DNA of 64,000 nt, taken from NCBI GenBank assembly GCA_011174845.1, contig DUEW01000080.1, positions 1,536 to 65,535 of the forward strand, in the 5' to 3' direction. Below are positions 16,480 to 23,136 of the stretch, one piece after another. Each line of letters starts with the position of its first letter. The stretch's first letter is position 1. The DNA is from Anaerolineae bacterium (GTDB lineage: Bacteria > Chloroflexota > Anaerolineae > Anaerolineales > E44-bin32). The translations under genes were made by a program, and so were the position numbers. The notes beneath the pieces were generated by a model, which worked only from the letters and a program-made list of their open reading frames with translations, ran no database searches and was not told the DNA's origin.

Positions 16480-16734
16480 TTATACCAGGACGAGGCAAAT
16501 GATCCCATACGCAACAGCGAGAACGCTGCTCAGCGCAAGAGCGAGCTTCGAGAGGGATAGAAATTCGCTCTTCCCCTGAACGGAGATGTCTCGATCTAGT
16601 TGTGCTGCTTTCAAGAGAAGTTCTTGTCGAGCTTTGGCAAGGCGCAAGTTATCCGTCATGGAGTTCTCCCAGTGCTTTAGGTACGTTGAAAGGAAATGCT
16701 CACTATAGCTCATTGGATGGATTTGATTCATCAT
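16480..16734 (-). CDS. Hypothetical small tail-anchored membrane protein
   Basis: 84-aa ORF. Helical N-terminal part and a single C-terminal hydrophobic segment LALALSSVLAVAYGIICLVLV. No recognisable family. Confidence 0.4.
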   Translation of the reverse strand: MMNQIHPMSYSEHFLSTYLKHWENSMTDNLRLAKARQELLLKAAQLDRDISVQGKSEFLSLSKLALALSSVLAVAYGIICLVLV

Positions 16735-16832: not shown

Positions 16833-17135
16833 TTACTTGGGCACTGCGTTTGATCCACCCCCATCGGAACTGATGTCACTGTAGCTTAGTTCAGCTTGCA
16901 GAAGTTCCTCACCGCTCATGACTTCGACCGAGCGTTCCACTGCATCATCGACGACCGGGCGATTGTCGAAAGCTGCTGGCCCAACGGCCTGGATGACCAT
17001 CAAACTTGCCAAGGTCACGGTCATGAGTGCCATGATTAAGTTTCGGCTGATTACACTGGTTCGGCGGCTCGCCCTCTCGCGGCTGGTTACTCGCCTTACA
17101 TCTCCCCATTGTGTCGTGCTGATGCTGATGTTCAT
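16833..17135 (-). CDS. Hypothetical single-pass membrane protein
   Basis: 100-aa ORF. Basic N-terminus, one TM (LIMALMTVTLASLMVIQAV), and an acidic C-terminal tail. Divergent from the SARP regulator gene. Confidence 0.4.
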   Translation of the reverse strand: MNISISTTQWGDVRRVTSRERASRRTSVISRNLIMALMTVTLASLMVIQAVGPAAFDNRPVVDDAVERSVEVMSGEELLQAELSYSDISSDGGGSNAVPK

Positions 17136-17493
17136 CTTGTCCTCCCCCGCCCTCTGTTTTGATTCTTTGTCCTGGTTTTGTTCTCGTTGGTCCGTTTTCT
17201 TGGCTTAAGATTAGCAAGTCGACGTTTCGCCAGTGTGGGAGCGATCGTTTATTCAGCGTGTTTTCTGTGGGAAAAAGGCAGAATCAAGGGGAGAAACCGG
17301 ATTTTAACGGGGTAAAATCTTCATTAAGCGTGGCTAAATGCCTGCTTTGGGTGTTATAAGAGTGCGGGGACGATTTCCAAACTCGACATGGCTTTGCATC
17401 CTTCTGATGCTATACTCGTAAATACCTGCGTCGTTTGCGTAAGTATCCTTCCTTTCGTCGAGTACAACGCAAAGATCCAATGGTGACTAGAGG

Positions 17494-19455
17494 ATGTTAG
17501 AGATCCGCTTACTAGGGGAATTCGATGTGCGTCTGAATGGAAAGCCCGTCGAGATCCCCTCGCGCCCAGCGCAATCGCTCCTGGCTTACCTCGTCCTGAA
17601 TGCCGAAACCAAACACCGTAGAGAGAAGTTAGCTGGCTTGCTGTGGCCGGATTCGGAGGAGGCCAACGCTCGCAGTAACCTACGCCACGCGCTTTGGCGG
17701 CTCCGCAAAGCGATCGGCGAGGAGCTCTTTTACACTGACAAAGTAACAATTGTCTTCAGAGCCCTAGACGATTGTGAGATTGATGTCTATTGTCTAGAAG
17801 ACGAACCCCTGGAATCGGGGGCTTTAGAAGATTTAATCAGCGCGGCATCCGTTTATGGGGGCGATCTTCTGCCGGGTTTTTATGAAAGTTGGGTCGTTCT
17901 CGAAAGGGAGCGGTTGCGATCCGCGTTCGAACATGTGGTCCAGCGATTGTTGGATTTACTGGTTGAGAAGGGATCTTGGCTCGAAGTCCTTGAGTGGGGA
18001 GAAAGATGGATTGCACTAGGGCATGTGCCTGAACCCGCTTATCGAGCGTTGATGAGCGCTCATAGCGCGTTAGGGGATTCAGCAGGTTTGGCTGCAGTCT
18101 ACCAGCGTTGCTGCGATGCGCTAAGAGGAGAGCTCGGTGTTGAGCCCTCGGAGCAGACACGATCGACGTACGAGTGGCTCAGCGAGGGAGGAGATCCTAC
18201 GGCGGTTGAACAAGCTTACGTAGAGCGGGAGGTGTCCTCAGCGACCGCGATACGGACGTTGCTCAAGCAATGGCGCCAAAAGGGTGTGGAAGTTCTCGAG
18301 TTAGCCAGTCTAGCGATGGTCCACGCGGCTAGGACAGATGAACCCTATGACCCGGAGGATGCTAGGCTGTTGGTTCGCAGCGCACTGCACCATGAGGTCG
18401 AGGTCGAACCATGGCTGAAGCGAGCCGGATCCCCACAGGTCGCCGTAGCAGCGATGGATGAAGTGCTTGAGACTTATCCCAGACCACGCGTGCGGATGAG
18501 AATTGTCGAAGCTCTCAGAGGTTTGAAAGGTGAGGAGGCGGACGAGACGTTACTGCGCATCGCTGTTAGCGATGATTCGAGTGAGGTACGTTCCGAAGCT
18601 GCCGTAGCCGCATCCCGGCGAGGTAAACACGAAGCCGTGACAAAGCATTTGGTAGAAGAGATCAACACCAGCGGAGATGCAGCGGCGTTATCAGCCTTTG
18701 TATCTGTTATCGATGAAGTGGGTCTTCCAGTGGTTGTGGGTCCCTATCCAAAACTCTCGGTTGCGGTTGCGCTTGCGCAAAGACGTTGGCGTGCGAATCG
18801 AATTGGAATTCTGAGGCAAGTAGCACGCGCAACTTTGGGTGGTGCAGTTGCGATGGGGATCATCTCCGTGATTTCACTTATACAACTACAGATAGTGTTA
18901 CCGGAAGAATTACGTGAAGCGACGGAATTTGTGCCTTTGCCTGTGTGGATTTTTACGAACGCACTGCTCGGTTTGGTATGGGGAGGTTTACAGGGAGCAT
19001 CGACGGGGTTAGTAACCGGATTAGCGGACGCTTTTTGGCGAGGTAAATCCTGGAAGCGGATGCGAATTCTGTTAGCAAGCCTCGCAGGTCTGGTTCATTC
19101 TGGTTTTGTCCTCTTCACGGCATCCACAAGCGATGTTTGGGCCAGCGAAGGTCCATCCGTCTACGTTCCCGTATACCTTATTTACGGTCTCATCGTGGGC
19201 GCGGCATTCTCGCTTGTTGTTCCCAGGCTAAACTTATCGACTTCATTGAGACAAGAACTATTCCAATCAATACGTGCCTCATTGATTCTGATTTTGTTCG
19301 GAATGATAAGTGTTTTCATTGCCTATGGTGGAAATTTGGATGACAGAACTTTCCGATTAGACCTGTTTATGTTCATCGTTACGGCATTGCTTTTCCCATT
19401 GGGGTTCGCATTGGCATTTAGCCGAAGAAAGGGTGAAGACACAGGATCTCGTTGA
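17494..19455 (+). CDS. SARP/BTAD-family transcriptional regulator fused to HEAT-like repeats and a C-terminal ~6-TM membrane domain
   Basis: 653-aa ORF. N-terminal OmpR-type winged-helix plus BTAD (MLEIRLLGEFDVRLNGKPVEIPSRPAQSLLAYLVLN ... LWPDSEEANARSNLRHALWRLRKAIG ... EPAYRALMSAHSALGDSAGLAAVYQRCCDALRGELGVEPSEQT). HEAT-like segment VRMRIVEALRGLKGEEADETLLRIAVSDDSSEVRSEAAVAA. Six hydrophobic helices from about residue 440 to 645. Confidence 0.8.
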   Translation: MLEIRLLGEFDVRLNGKPVEIPSRPAQSLLAYLVLNAETKHRREKLAGLLWPDSEEANARSNLRHALWRLRKAIGEELFYTDKVTIVFRALDDCEIDVYCLEDEPLESGALEDLISAASVYGGDLLPGFYESWVVLERERLRSAFEHVVQRLLDLLVEKGSWLEVLEWGERWIALGHVPEPAYRALMSAHSALGDSAGLAAVYQRCCDALRGELGVEPSEQTRSTYEWLSEGGDPTAVEQAYVEREVSSATAIRTLLKQWRQKGVEVLELASLAMVHAARTDEPYDPEDARLLVRSALHHEVEVEPWLKRAGSPQVAVAAMDEVLETYPRPRVRMRIVEALRGLKGEEADETLLRIAVSDDSSEVRSEAAVAASRRGKHEAVTKHLVEEINTSGDAAALSAFVSVIDEVGLPVVVGPYPKLSVAVALAQRRWRANRIGILRQVARATLGGAVAMGIISVISLIQLQIVLPEELREATEFVPLPVWIFTNALLGLVWGGLQGASTGLVTGLADAFWRGKSWKRMRILLASLAGLVHSGFVLFTASTSDVWASEGPSVYVPVYLIYGLIVGAAFSLVVPRLNLSTSLRQELFQSIRASLILILFGMISVFIAYGGNLDDRTFRLDLFMFIVTALLFPLGFALAFSRRKGEDTGSR

Positions 19456-19500
19456 GTACAACGTCGTAATATACATTTTTCCACAAGCGAGGAGGAAGAA

Positions 19501-19728
19501 ATGGACCGGCAATTCTCAGATCGAATGAAGAAGGTACAAAAGCTCATTAAAATGGCCAAGGTTGACAAAGAAATCCAGGAAAAATTAAAAAGCGGCGACA
19601 AGGAACTGGTGATGCCGGTGCTCAAGGAAGCAGGTTTGAGCGAAAAGGATGTGGAAGAACTCGTAGGCGATCTAGATACAATTTCTACTTCCGTAACAGC
19701 CTTGGGTTTCTGGAGATTTGGGGCTTAG
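19501..19728 (+). CDS. Nif11-type leader-like small peptide with a Trp-containing C-terminal tail (candidate RiPP/pheromone precursor)
   Basis: 75-aa ORF with a strong RBS (GAGGAGGAAGAA directly upstream of the ATG). KVQKLIKMAKVDKEIQEKLKSGDKELVMPVLKEAGLSEKDVEEL matches the Nif11 pattern (compare prochlorosin leaders: LKAFIAKVQADTSLQEQLKAEG..VVAIAKAAGFSIT.EDLE). Tail is TISTSVTALGFWRFGA, with the Trp codon at 19711-19713. There is no GG cleavage motif. Confidence 0.6.
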   Translation: MDRQFSDRMKKVQKLIKMAKVDKEIQEKLKSGDKELVMPVLKEAGLSEKDVEELVGDLDTISTSVTALGFWRFGA

Positions 19729-19775: not shown

Positions 19776-20807
19776 TTGAATGTCAGTGCTAATCCTGAGA
19801 GAGGGTTTCCTCGGAGGGATTTCTTTGTGCATGCAAAGTACCTAAGAAGCCGCCGAGCGAAGAGACTCTTTGATGACTTGGACGAACTCTACTTCCAATT
19901 TGCCTCCCAGCTGCCTTCCCCGCTGGATGCCCTTGCTCAATTAAACAGCACGTATGAAGGGGATAATGAACAAAAACCCTTTGAGAGCCTGCGAGGTTTA
20001 AACCCCGTTCTCGTAGGCACACCATGGCTCTTTTGGGAGACATTTGAAGGGCTTTCTGATAAAACTTTCCTTCTCATAGCCGAGGCTGGCACGTACTACG
20101 TGTTGGCCTCGGTTGTTATGGATCACATCTTGGATGGACAAGCCAAACCAATAGAAGCCATGGGTCTGTTTCATCAGGCACTTTATGAAAGAGGGATTGC
20201 CAAGTATCGCCAGGCGTTTTCCACTTCATCTTCGTTCTGGGATCACTTTGAGAGGTTGGCGATCGATCACTTGGCAGGTCTATCGGAAGAGTATGTACTT
20301 CAATCCCATCCCCAACGGATAGATCGAGAGGCTCTCATTAAAATGGCACATGGAAAGGTATCCCCCATTGTCACCACAATTGTTGGTTTGGCGGAGACCT
20401 TGGATAAAACGGCTGTGATCGTGCCTATTGAGGCCTCTCTAAAACACATAGCTGTGGCTTCGCAACTGTTGGACGATATTGGGGATTGGAAACACGATCT
20501 ACAAGTTGGTCATATGACATATTATTTATCTTGTCTCACTCCGAACGCAGCTGGGTTGTTAACTGAACGATCTTCCTTGGATGAACATCAACGCAAGATT
20601 GACGCTGAATGGTTAGATGTTGAACAAATGGGTGAGGTGATCGAAGGGCTGAACCGTTCGCTTGAGGCCGTAAGGGATGTTGATTGCCCGGCATGGATCG
20701 ATTATGTAAATGGTTATAAGACTCTAGCAAATGAGCACATGACAGGATTTGTGGCCCGACATATCATGCGAATACTTCAACAATTAGACATAAATCCAAA
20801 TGATTAA
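19776..20807 (+). CDS. Polyprenyl-synthase-fold (class I isoprenoid enzyme) protein, ComQ-like candidate peptide prenyltransferase
   Basis: 343-aa ORF starting 47 nt after the small peptide gene. Degenerate first Asp motif VVMDHILDG (20121-20135). Second motif ASQLLDDIGDWKHD (20472-20498) resembles the polyprenyl synthase SARM FQxxDDxxD. The two motifs are about 117 residues apart. Start codon uncertain (TTG 19776 or a downstream GTG). Confidence 0.5.
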   Translation: MNVSANPERGFPRRDFFVHAKYLRSRRAKRLFDDLDELYFQFASQLPSPLDALAQLNSTYEGDNEQKPFESLRGLNPVLVGTPWLFWETFEGLSDKTFLLIAEAGTYYVLASVVMDHILDGQAKPIEAMGLFHQALYERGIAKYRQAFSTSSSFWDHFERLAIDHLAGLSEEYVLQSHPQRIDREALIKMAHGKVSPIVTTIVGLAETLDKTAVIVPIEASLKHIAVASQLLDDIGDWKHDLQVGHMTYYLSCLTPNAAGLLTERSSLDEHQRKIDAEWLDVEQMGEVIEGLNRSLEAVRDVDCPAWIDYVNGYKTLANEHMTGFVARHIMRILQQLDINPND

Positions 20808-20985: not shown

Positions 20986-21012
20986 CAGCGCCGAGCTACC
21001 GGCGCTGCTTTT
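20986..21012. terminator. Terminator hairpin (copy A of the duplicated fmdB 3-prime flank)
   Basis: Stem CAGCGCCG / CGGCGCTG with loop AGCTAC, followed by CTTTT. Lies between the convergent 19776..20807(+) gene and the fmdB fragment. Confidence 0.55.
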
Positions 21013-21043
21013 AGATTTCAAAAGAATTCTTCAAAATATTCTT

Positions 21044-21195: not shown

Positions 21196-23136
21196 CTAAA
21201 AATATACGCTGTAAGTTTTTAAAAGAAGATAGGCAGTTATCAATTGCACAGCCGTTCCGACTTTTATAATCTTGATATTAAAACCAAAAATATACTTTAA
21301 CTCATCGATGGCGAGAAGGATAAATCCTGGAACAAGGAAGATCCACAATCTACCGACCTCGCCTCGTGTCTGACCCAAAAGGTTCAGGAGGAAATAGGTA
21401 ACGAAAAAGGATATGGCCACGAGATCGATGTCCCTCATACGTTCCTTGAGCAGCCTCATTCCTGCCCTCAACCACCTCGATATCGCAAGTAGAAAAATCG
21501 GTGCACCTACCCAAAATACAAACTCTAAATTGTTCTGCACGACAGCTAAGAACACTTGCTGAAGATCTGGTTGAAGTAATTTCACACTTCGATGGACGGC
21601 GAGGGCTTTCGAATACCGCAGGAAGGGATCATAACCAAAACCAATGTAGAAAAGAACTCCCGTTAGAATGACGCTAATAGCAACCCCTGCAGATACGTAA
21701 AACAACCTTTTACTAACGCCATGTTTTCTTTGCTTCCACATTCTCAACCCAAGTAGGGTGAATGTCATCGCCAACAGAGCGATGAGAGAGAAGCTTGTGA
21801 ACACTGACACATAGATAAAACCACCAGAAAGCATGCCAATCCAGAATGATTCACTCGTCACTGTCTTCCAAGCCAGAAAGATTCCGATCATAAAAAGCAA
21901 GGGGTACAGGAATTGATCTAGCAGAAGCGTTTGCAAAGCAAAGCATGGGACTAGGCTTAGGATCAAAGAGGGTGTCCAGCTCTCATGTTTCTCAAGAAAT
22001 TCCCTACCGAGAAGATACAAAACACACAAACCTAAAAGTGAAAACACCGGAAAAGTAAGTGTAGCGAATCTGACGAGGTTTTCTCGACGTTCTTCATAAC
22101 TCGCCCGAGGGTCGCTCAAATTGGAGATCTTTTCCATAAAGATGTAGAAGACAAGAGCCCCTGGTGGTTTCGTTCTGAGGGTTTCATCAGTCCCATAGCG
22201 CTCCTCGTATTTGACTATCGCTCGACTGAGATTGAGATTGGGTCCAGCGTTGACAAGATAGCGGACTTGATTGGACTGATATAGTGGCGTCTGGAGGGAG
22301 TCGAAGCTTCCTCCTCGGATGAACGCAAAAGACACCTGAGTGACATAACCCAGGACTAAGATCAGGATCAGATGTCGATAACCCTTTATAGAAAAGGTCT
22401 TCATCCGCCCAACCACCCACAGCGCAAAGAATATCAAGCCAAGAAAAAGAAGGTCTCTAAGCGAAAAGGGTTGGACGTTGAACCATCCCCACCAATAAGG
22501 GAAATGGAAGAGAACACTTTCGCGAAGGACTAGGATCAATATGTGCAACAGGGTGAAGGAGACGATCACGAGGCCCCACAAATACCGCAGGATCATACGA
22601 GTTGTGAAGGTTTTCACCTTTTCCCTGATTGAGTGGTATGCGACAAAGATGAATGCCAAAGTTTGAGCAGTTGCTAGAGTCCCCCACCGGATAATGGAGA
22701 ACGATCGATCATAAACAGCACGGAGTGAACCGAAGTACTCTCCCAGAGGTAAAGCAAAGATGAGCTCGATCAGAACGCCCAAGATCGTTATATATGCAAT
22801 TATCAGCATGCTGATTGCTATTCGATCTGATTTCTGAATGTATTCCTCCAGCGTAAACAAAATGTCTTCAAACCAGGAGTGGTTTGTAAATGACTTCACC
22901 GAAAGATAGGTCAGGAGCAGTAGCAGGAGGAGAGCAATTCCCCCCAGAACGATACGTTCCGGAGAAAAGCCGAAAAGAAAGGCGCTATCTCTATCTGAAT
23001 GGATTCGAAATAGGAGGATGAAAGCGGGGATTCCTTCGATTGTGGTAAGGATTAAGAGGACCTGCATCAAATGCTTTTTGTACAGAGATGGGGTTTCCCT
23101 CAATTCCTCCAGCATTTGGGTGATTCTATTACCCAT
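21196..23136 (-). CDS. Large polytopic membrane protein, possible GT-C (ArnT/PMT-like) glycosyltransferase
   Basis: 646-aa ORF with more than 15 hydrophobic segments. The loop motif RTKPPGALVFYIF is reminiscent of the KPPL motif of GT-C enzymes. Visibly more AT-rich than neighbouring genes. The functional call is weak. Confidence 0.4.
   Translation of the reverse strand: MGNRITQMLEELRETPSLYKKHLMQVLLILTTIEGIPAFILLFRIHSDRDSAFLFGFSPERIVLGGIALLLLLLLTYLSVKSFTNHSWFEDILFTLEEYIQKSDRIAISMLIIAYITILGVLIELIFALPLGEYFGSLRAVYDRSFSIIRWGTLATAQTLAFIFVAYHSIREKVKTFTTRMILRYLWGLVIVSFTLLHILILVLRESVLFHFPYWWGWFNVQPFSLRDLLFLGLIFFALWVVGRMKTFSIKGYRHLILILVLGYVTQVSFAFIRGGSFDSLQTPLYQSNQVRYLVNAGPNLNLSRAIVKYEERYGTDETLRTKPPGALVFYIFMEKISNLSDPRASYEERRENLVRFATLTFPVFSLLGLCVLYLLGREFLEKHESWTPSLILSLVPCFALQTLLLDQFLYPLLFMIGIFLAWKTVTSESFWIGMLSGGFIYVSVFTSFSLIALLAMTFTLLGLRMWKQRKHGVSKRLFYVSAGVAISVILTGVLFYIGFGYDPFLRYSKALAVHRSVKLLQPDLQQVFLAVVQNNLEFVFWVGAPIFLLAISRWLRAGMRLLKERMRDIDLVAISFFVTYFLLNLLGQTRGEVGRLWIFLVPGFILLAIDELKYIFGFNIKIIKVGTAVQLITAYLLLKTYSVYF

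Follow-up and report, generated by a model that had tools for sequence, protein, structure and literature searches.

A SARP-type regulator with a predicted six-helix membrane domain, encoded next to a Trp-containing peptide and a prenyltransferase-like protein in Anaerolineae

Why should a transcriptional regulator of the SARP type carry six membrane-spanning helices, and why should its gene be followed at once by genes for a small peptide and a prenyltransferase-like protein? The question is raised by a locus on contig DUEW01000080.1 of an Anaerolineae bacterium (Chloroflexota; assembly GCA_011174845.1), of which a 64,000-nucleotide stretch (positions 1,536 to 65,535 of the forward strand), hereafter called the window, was analysed. 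The three genes are referred to as R (regulator), X (precursor peptide) and Q (prenyltransferase-like protein). An initial annotation, made from the letters of the window, had proposed that they form a three-gene signalling module with the membrane domain of R as the peptide receptor, and comparative genomics supports that proposal as far as it reaches, i.e. by gene linkage and by the swapping of output domains. On balance, and without great assurance, we lean towards R-X-Q being a self-contained autoinducing peptide-signalling cassette in which the six-transmembrane (6TM) domain of R senses prenylated X. Signalling by Trp-prenylated peptides is established in Firmicutes (ComQXPA, PalPXQ), whereas in Chloroflexi it is represented only by recent biochemistry (StheQ/StheX).

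R is encoded by one open reading frame (ORF) in which a SARP domain, a HEAT-like helical part and about six transmembrane (TM) helices follow one another as first described, and the ORF check, the Pfam search and the AlphaFold2 model agree on this composition. The BTAD domain was recognised at residues 109-227 (Pfam PF03704, E=5e-17, 63 bits against a cutoff of 22.1), and HEAT_2 narrowly passed its threshold at residues 324-390 (28.6 bits, cutoff 27.7). Trans_reg_C at residues 27-77 remained below threshold (17.3 vs 26.2 bits), and the same Pfam model passed in the R homologue P0058 (30.8 bits). Pfam and NCBIfam searches detected no kinase, receiver, ATPase, protease or transporter family in R, which bears out the earlier reading of the protein as free of kinase, receiver and ATPase domains.

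The AlphaFold2 model of R, built from 18 family members, reached a mean predicted local distance difference test (pLDDT) score of 84.7. In Foldseek searches its first ~250 residues superposed on the SARP domains of AfsR in the cryo-EM transcription complexes 8k60 and 8hvr (target-normalised TM-score 0.74-0.76), and the SARP region also superposed on EmbR (2fez). On the basis of these fold matches to AfsR and EmbR, the winged helix-turn-helix (wHTH) is of the OmpR type that belongs to the SARP family, and R is a SARP by structural definition (wHTH plus BTAD). Residues 249-408 are all-helical in the model, and a continuous helix (420-468) links this HEAT-like domain into TM1. Hydropathy and the model agreed on six TM helices (approximately residues 447-469, 479-511, 523-545, 554-577, 592-611 and 622-643). 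Segments rich in Lys and Arg precede TM1 (AQRRWRANR), lie between TM2 and TM3 (WRGKSWKRMR) and between TM4 and TM5, and occupy the C-terminus; the loops that alternate with them are acidic and 10-13 residues long, with no extracytoplasmic domain according to hydropathy and the model. By the positive-inside rule this pattern predicts an N-in/C-in topology, which in turn would place the DNA-binding domain in the cytoplasm; the wHTH outside the cytoplasm, which the initial annotation would have taken as the sign of a mis-called ORF, is not what the topology analysis predicts. Within the 6TM domain, D512, G532 and G569 were invariant and R524 and P577 nearly invariant in the family alignment, the charged residues D512 and R524 being located on the cytoplasmic side. 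The conserved set contains no His, Glu or Cys of catalytic type, which argues against a protease or transporter role.

More than 100 homologues of R were found at 38-90% identity with ~99% of the length covered, nearly all of them from metagenome-assembled genomes (MAGs) of Anaerolineae/Anaerolineales. When one genome per species was scanned, nine full-length R relatives came up; the other 70 loci contained N-terminal BTAD paralogues only. X and Q were located directly downstream of R in all 15 regulator-centred loci that could be evaluated, and straight after R in 8/8 loci of the genome scan with downstream DNA. A metagenome scan seeded with Q gave 43 loci, and a 6TM gene was found upstream of Q in 35 of the 37 that had at least 640 nt of upstream DNA. 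L122 and L124 were considered as counter-examples and set aside, both being the weakest, partial Q matches and L122 apparently rearranged. Each 6TM variant examined, whether with kinase, cyclase or BTAD, was followed by X-Q, and the arrangement was seen in the close relatives L125-L127, in the most divergent loci L128 and L130 (41-42% identity) and in the kinase-bearing L080 and L081. In L004, L005, L007 and L009 the flanking genes of the window were all missing and the X-Q linkage was kept, so that the linkage amounts to more than conserved neighbourhood synteny.

The R-X-Q linkage is thus near-obligate. A BTAD-6TM protein was never encountered without the peptide/prenyltransferase-like pair, the co-occurrence for which the initial annotation had suggested a search; the opposite outcome, a BTAD-TM architecture widespread without small-peptide genes, is contradicted by the same regulator-centred and Q-centred counts.

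A profile of the 6TM domain alone found only 98 representatives among 1.84 billion cluster representatives, and in every one of these the domain was C-terminal. The N-terminal partners in the complete proteins of this search were BTAD, BTAD followed by a Ser/Thr kinase (STK; P0058 and P0107), STK followed by BTAD (P0103), STK, or class III cyclase. In L109 a Ser/Thr kinase replaces the SARP N-terminus, L105 and L119 carry a class III nucleotidyl cyclase as output, and in L082 the cyclase is joined directly to the 6TM part; the HEAT-like domain was kept in the kinase variants and in most cyclase variants. Judged by sequence identity, the 6TM domain groups by the tail type of X and not by output. 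The TM domain of the window (BTAD, tail FWRFGA) is 55% identical to that of L082 (cyclase, tail FWRFGAET) and at most 45% identical to those of BTAD-type proteins with other tails, and the TM domains of L109 (STK) and L100 (BTAD), both with the tail LRFWWW, are likewise 55% identical. The 6TM and Q families are of about the same size and essentially co-extensive. A constant core of 6TM, X and Q combined with exchangeable outputs is the pattern expected of a ligand-receptor pair. One match of the 6TM profile, P0227 (738 aa), carried CarboxypepD_reg/Big_6-like Ig-type domains and no recognisable signalling output.

The X ORF begins 45 nt past the stop codon of R in the window, and all evaluable loci have an X ORF, of 70-140 aa, between R and Q. 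When 15 diverse X sequences were aligned, the sole invariant residue besides Met1 was a Trp near the C-terminus, always with Phe or Trp just before it, within the tail classes FWRFGA (window), RFWL, (R/Q)WWSP(L/I)x, (F/W)WWW and xFW. A small precursor with an invariant Trp in its C-terminal part corresponds to the ComX type. Leader models of Nif11 (PF07862/TIGR03798) matched 5/15 of the X peptides, with best E-values of 4e-4 (Pfam) and 1e-3 (TIGR03798); the peptide of the window itself gave a weak match (Pfam, E=0.09). Nif11 was the only family matched by more than one member, and the leader is therefore taken as a distant Nif11 type. The description of X as Nif11-like holds to that extent, as the only family with repeated matches, and is tempered by their weakness and by their restriction to a third of the peptides. 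No cleavage motif of the GG type was evident in X.

Q of the window shares 99% identity with a protein from ‘Anaerolineae bacterium SM23_63’, a public homologue of 326 aa that starts 17 codons later. All 98 homologues of Q were annotated as hypothetical, and Q had no Pfam (including polyprenyl_synt) or NCBIfam match. Its AlphaFold2 model (pLDDT 89) returned as top 50 PDB fold matches exclusively polyprenyl, octaprenyl, geranylgeranyl diphosphate and farnesyl diphosphate (FPP) synthases, with TM-scores of 0.5-0.72 and 12-16% identity. A Q profile aligned a Lys and the segment QLLDDIGDW with the K...FQxxDDxxD second Asp-rich region of FPP synthases at marginal significance (E=0.007-0.03), and a single-sequence search of PDB gave nothing significant; the assignment of Q to the isoprenyl diphosphate synthase (IPPS) fold therefore rests mainly on the fold search. 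Invariant residues were D116 and D120 (DHxxD), G193-K194, Q230, D234, D237 and D241. In the first Asp-rich motif, DHxxD, a His takes the place of the second Asp, and the second motif, DDIGD, is kept, D233 being nearly invariant. The earlier label ComQ-like applies to fold and motifs and goes no further, given the missing Pfam match and the low identity to IPPS structures.

How does this gene set relate to known systems? In ComQXPA of Bacillus, ComQ prenylates a Trp of ComX, the polytopic kinase ComP senses the product and ComA responds, whereas in R the proposed sensor and the DNA-binding output are combined in one polypeptide. In its likely function the locus resembles ComQXPA. Both have an IPPS-fold enzyme next to a small precursor with Trp near its C-terminus and a polytopic membrane sensor in the same cluster, and an autoinduction logic is likely in both. 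The sensor part of R is C-terminal with short external loops and that of ComP is N-terminal; moreover, Q escapes the Pfam model polyprenyl_synt, X has a long Nif11-like leader and the genes run in the order sensor-X-Q. R and the adjacent genes proved free of HisKA, HATPase and receiver domains, and R-X-Q falls outside the ComQXPA class because ComP and ComA are missing. The order sensor-X-Q is that of PalPXQ in Paenibacillus alvei, where an NHLP-type precursor with C-terminal Trp accompanies an IPPS-like enzyme (PMC10853753), and R-X-Q matches this system especially well in gene order and precursor type. The sensor PalP, however, is a histidine kinase, whereas here it is a SARP-HEAT-6TM protein or a kinase or cyclase variant.

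The counterpart within the Chloroflexi is StheQ of Sphaerobacter thermophilus, which prenylates the penultimate Trp of the 69-aa StheX; no receptor was reported, and the role of the modified peptide was stated by the authors to be unknown (bioRxiv 10.64898/2026.08.29.745113). Compared by published residue positions, the QxxDDxxD spacing of Q equals Q212/N215/D216/D219 of StheQ. StheX ends in two Trp plus one more residue, as in tails found here, and has a leader of the NHLP/Nif11 class; the first Asp-rich motif differs, Q having DHxxD and not DDxxD. In the literature searched we found no description of a SARP-HEAT-6TM architecture or of a receptor for Chloroflexi prenyl-peptides.

With the SARP family (AfsR, DnrI, ActII-ORF4, EmbR), whose members activate transcription by RNA polymerase recruitment, R shares the N-terminal OmpR-type wHTH plus BTAD; its candidate operator, of direct repeats phased by 11 bp, would likewise lie near -35. 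SARPs are classed as small, consisting of the SARP domain only, or large, with NOD/ATPase and TPR domains added (PMC10936776). The known SARPs are soluble, whereas R adds a HEAT-like domain and six TM helices, and R is from Chloroflexota, not Actinomycetota. Like ToxR and CadC, R would be a one-component protein with a membrane-tethered cytoplasmic N-terminal wHTH, presumed to act on DNA while membrane-bound; those proteins have one TM helix and a periplasmic sensor domain, whereas R has six TM helices and no extracytoplasmic domain. ToxR, CadC, TcpP and BcrR of Enterococcus are membrane-integrated one-component regulators, and BcrR combines an XRE-type HTH with a C-terminal domain of four TM helices, through which it senses a peptide antibiotic. 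BcrR is the nearest conceptual analogue of R, with the difference that its HTH is XRE-type. To our knowledge none of these four has the BTAD, HEAT and 6TM combination or is accompanied by a cognate pair for peptide modification. AgrC likewise senses, with six to seven helices and short loops, a hydrophobic modified peptide encoded in the same locus; it is, however, a histidine kinase with an N-terminal sensor, and no relationship with R in sequence or fold was detected.

The extended -10 element TGCTATACT, which the initial annotation had offered as a possibility, is real and conserved: TGnTAYAMT was present upstream of R in 22 of the 28 loci scanned, and in 17 of these at a fixed distance of 71-79 nt before the start codon. 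Further upstream in the window is a 34-bp box reading AGTGTGGGAGCGAT-CGTTTATTCAG-CGTGTTTTC, composed of repeats of (G/C)GT(G/T)T. Its 20-nt core, CGTTTATTCAGCGTGTTTTC, was defined outside the window from aligned distant loci (L007 and L110, the element being seen also in L009), and matched the 64 kb once, at 17246-17265, with 0 mismatches against 0.00 matches expected. About 20 BTAD-type loci (43-90% amino-acid identity) carry the box ahead of R in the same orientation; near the variants with a cyclase alone or a kinase alone it was missing. When 1.1 Mb of DNA was scanned with a weight matrix, the box also turned up in front of ten BTAD paralogues with different C-termini, at a distance of 75-270 nt. 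Since the box travels with the wHTH-BTAD module, its simplest reading is that of a candidate autoregulatory operator of this family.

In targets of SARPs, direct repeats are 11 or 22 bp apart, and the 3′ repeat lies near -10 and overlaps -35 (PMC10936776). The 11-bp phasing of the box would fit this rule, as would the spacing in L009, L090 and L094, where 12 nt separate the box from a TATAAT hexamer downstream. In the clade of the window the box is 154 nt upstream of the strong extended -10. Hexamers nnGAAT or TAGAAA occur in L125-L127 at the same offset as a CAGAAT of the window, which might, speculatively, be an activator-dependent promoter element. A search for SARP boxes had been proposed both upstream of R and in the R-X spacer, and it was only upstream of R that a direct-repeat box appeared; a box in the 45-nt R-X spacer or in the X-Q spacer was rejected, nothing repeat-like being present there. 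The R-X spacers measure 20-85 nt in most loci (45 nt in the window), too short in most cases to leave room for an independent promoter. No terminator-like site was found between R, X and Q in a consensus scan. Because of the short spacers and of this lack, R-X-Q is probably one transcription unit, in which case autoregulation of R would at the same time be autoinduction of X and Q. A terminator-like hairpin beyond Q (Table 1) comes from the same weak consensus scan, in which the counts were not above those of shuffled sequences.

If these elements work together as we propose, Q would prenylate W71 of X, by analogy with ComQ, PalQ and StheQ, and prenylated X would be processed and released by factors left unspecified. 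The lipidated peptide would partition into the membrane and be recognised by the 6TM bundle of R, from where the signal would travel along the helix continuous with TM1, then through the HEAT-like domain, and reach the SARP domain in the cytoplasm. This domain would stay membrane-tethered, as in ToxR, CadC and BcrR, and bind the triple-repeat box upstream of R, and box-bound R would raise R-X-Q transcription above the level of a basal extended -10 promoter, closing a positive feedback. Prenylation, export, the contact of ligand and receptor, box binding and the sign of regulation are steps that we infer.

Several observations weigh against autoinduction by a secreted, prenylated X. The module has no conserved exporter or leader protease, which leaves the secretion of X a presumption. 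Tailoring enzymes (SQHop-cyclase-like, methyltransferase, P450) make some loci look more like a natural-product cluster than a pheromone locus, all loci are from uncultured MAGs or metagenomes, the 6TM domain has no structural analogue among PDB fold matches, and its co-clustering with X could partly mirror organismal phylogeny. As for the operator, the box was undetected in the BTAD-type loci L003, L006, L100 and L106 and near L080 and L081, its distance to the strong extended -10 varies (21, 46 or ~154 nt), and in the window it would need a weak -10 of its own, which is speculative; its occurrence near paralogues means that the box alone does not tie R to X-Q.

Part of this evidence would suit R as the cluster-situated activator of a cluster for a ribosomally synthesized and post-translationally modified peptide, with a prenylated product made from X-Q. 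The 6TM domain would then sense something other than that product, for instance stress at the membrane or envelope or an intermediate of isoprenoid or lipid type, or serve only in feedback or immunity sensing. SARPs are classically pathway-specific activators (PMC10936776), tailoring genes are present in several loci, no exporter is conserved, and the box near paralogues makes autoregulation a family trait. We nonetheless consider such a role unlikely: cyclase and STK 6TM genes that lack a DNA-binding domain still adjoin X-Q directly upstream, which is hard to reconcile with X-Q as a mere SARP target, the TM domain sorts by peptide tail type, and the 6TM and Q families are equally small with essentially the same extent. 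The absence of an exporter, together with the missing GG-type motif, would also be explained if full-length prenylated X remained in the inner leaflet and modulated R within the same cell, so that the system would report the supply of isoprenoids or the state of the membrane, not cell density. D512 and R524 lie on the side of the membrane where such a ligand would be met, and StheQ binds full-length StheX tightly. This cell-autonomous sensing is given a small chance, as Nif11-like leaders belong to a class normally removed on export, in L080 the gene right after Q encodes a C39-like lipoprotein peptidase predicted to be extracytoplasmic, and the analogues ComX and PalX are processed, ComX being an extracellular pheromone.

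A smaller chance still is given to the 6TM domain as an AgrB- or CaaX-protease-like device for processing or exporting prenylated X, the cytoplasmic domain coupling regulation to secretion flux. Six TM helices with short loops recall membrane peptidases of the AgrB type, and no separate exporter or protease is conserved; but no protease or transporter family was detected in R, the conserved residues D512, G532, G569, R524 and P577 include nothing of catalytic type, and fusions to kinases, cyclases and transcription factors are typical of sensors, not enzymes. That R is an artefact, i.e. two genes fused by a sequencing error or a mis-call, is scarcely credible and finds no point in its favour: the same length and architecture recur in more than 100 independent homologues from many assemblies, which already refutes it, and in the model a continuous helix runs from the HEAT-like domain into TM1.

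Should R, X and Q indeed form an autoinducing system, then, tentatively, the HEAT-6TM part may represent an unrecognised receptor family for Trp-prenylated peptides, and with it perhaps the first peptide quorum sensing of Chloroflexota (Anaerolineae), with plug-and-play outputs (SARP, STK, cyclase), the first membrane-embedded SARP and the missing receptor of StheQX-type systems. It would follow that a SARP, normally a soluble activator of antibiotic pathways, can act as a polytopic membrane one-component receptor, that rewiring can couple one and the same sensor domain to transcription, phosphorylation or cyclic nucleotides as its output, and that the abundant uncultured Anaerolineae of sediments and bioreactors communicate by lipopeptide. 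The locus offers a candidate receptor conserved across Anaerolineae, a predicted operator and a three-gene unit small enough to be rebuilt heterologously, and the natural receptor/peptide pairs (tails FWRFGA, RFWL, WWSPLx, FWWW/WWWW and xFW) could be orthogonal signalling parts.

Table 1. Features of the R-X-Q locus and its neighbours, in positions of the window.
Feature	Position	Strand	Description
R	17494..19455	+	Membrane-integrated SARP-type regulator, 653 aa, ATG start; whole ORF
SARP domain of R	17494..18174	+	OmpR-type winged helix (~residues 1-100) and BTAD (109-227)
HEAT/ARM-like domain of R	18238..18717	+	Helical repeat domain, ~residues 249-408
6TM domain of R	18829..19422	+	C-terminal, ~residues 446-643; proposed sensor
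X	19501..19728	+	Precursor peptide, 75 aa, Nif11-like leader; core end ...ALGFW71RFGA
W71 codon of X	19711-19713	+	Invariant Trp
Q	19776..20807	+	IPPS-fold protein, putative peptide Trp prenyltransferase; listed from TTG 19776
Candidate SARP-type operator	17232..17265	+	AGTGTGGGAGCGATCGTTTATTCAGCGTGTTTTC; three direct repeats xGTGx/CGTTTAT/CGTGTTT, phased 12 and 11 bp
Possible weak -10	17279..17284	+	CAGAAT, 13 nt after the 3′ repeat unit; read from sequence
Extended -10 of R gene	17408..17416	+	TGCTATACT
Terminator-like hairpin	20986..21017	+	With T-rich tail, ~180 nt after Q; possible end of the R-X-Q transcript
Divergent single-TM protein	16833..17135	-	100 aa; clade-specific neighbour
Small TM protein	16480..16734	-	84 aa, tail-anchored; kept only in L126 and L127
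Polytopic membrane protein	21196..23136	-	646 aa; between Q and the Zn-ribbon gene; no Pfam/NCBIfam match

The two small TM proteins encoded divergently from R exist as the initial annotation had described them; they lie outside the conserved module, and only the 100-aa one is kept, in the closest clades. Its homologues (46-74% identity) were confined to the clade of the window (L125-L127) and to L002, L097 and L098, and it was absent from most R-X-Q loci. The direct-repeat box is located between its gene and R, and the regulatory region might be common to both. The 646-aa protein has a homologue in L126 (79% identity) and in no other locus, and looks like an insertion into a syntenic block rather than a part of the module. 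These three proteins were rejected as core components, as they are not conserved with the module.

A 15-nt repeat, TCGTYGAGTACAACG, was also rejected as a part of the module, its pattern having been derived from its own two copies, the only ones in the window. The first copy (17455-17469) stands 25 nt ahead of the ATG of R, within the 5′ leader, and the second (19449-19463) overlaps the stop codon of R, 37 nt before the ATG of X. The repeat is partly kept in the closest relatives L125 and L126 and absent from L127 and more distant loci, and many two-copy repeats of comparable length occur in the surrounding region; it could be a shared leader element or due to chance.

Additional enzymes accompany X-Q in some loci. 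The Q protein of L127 (6587-8317) continues into a fused C-terminal domain of ~330 aa that contains DGSW/QW-like repeats (SQHop-cyclase-like), and loci of the WWSP-tail class encode a protein of 333 aa separately, after Q (L005:9358-10359, L004:10544-11545, L117:6252-7325), which matched the C-terminal domain of squalene-hopene cyclase below threshold (24.9 bits, cutoff 26.1). These findings suggest that some lineages process the prenyl group further. Cytochrome P450 or S-adenosylmethionine-dependent methyltransferase genes, possibly for tailoring enzymes, were located beside X-Q at L130:7023-8995, L004:9497-10465 and L127:8368-9081. In the kinase-plus-BTAD locus L080 (9213-10469), the gene directly after Q encodes a predicted lipoprotein of 418 aa whose lipobox reads LVAC and which contains a Peptidase_C39_2 domain. 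It is a candidate leader peptidase of the extracytoplasmic side and was seen in no other locus among those with downstream genes inspected.

The BTAD paralogues of loci L010-L079, from Anaerolineae and other Chloroflexota, have a wHTH-BTAD part 50-60% identical to that of R and differ in their C-termini (STAND ATPase-TPR, kinases). Several genomes hold three or four such loci, and a GCGTKT direct-repeat box lies upstream of many of them, which suggests a large self-regulating family of SARP-like regulators outside Actinomycetota. In the window, R-X-Q occupies a slot between acylphosphatase/DUF498 and Zn-ribbon/RNase Z genes. The same slot in L029 (5902-11731; also in L061) contains an AfsR-like large SARP of 1257 aa (BTAD, AAA ATPase, TPR) without X-Q, preceded in L029 by the same direct-repeat box and accompanied by a 655-aa protein of no assigned family, which points to replacement of one paralogue by another at a conserved chromosomal site.

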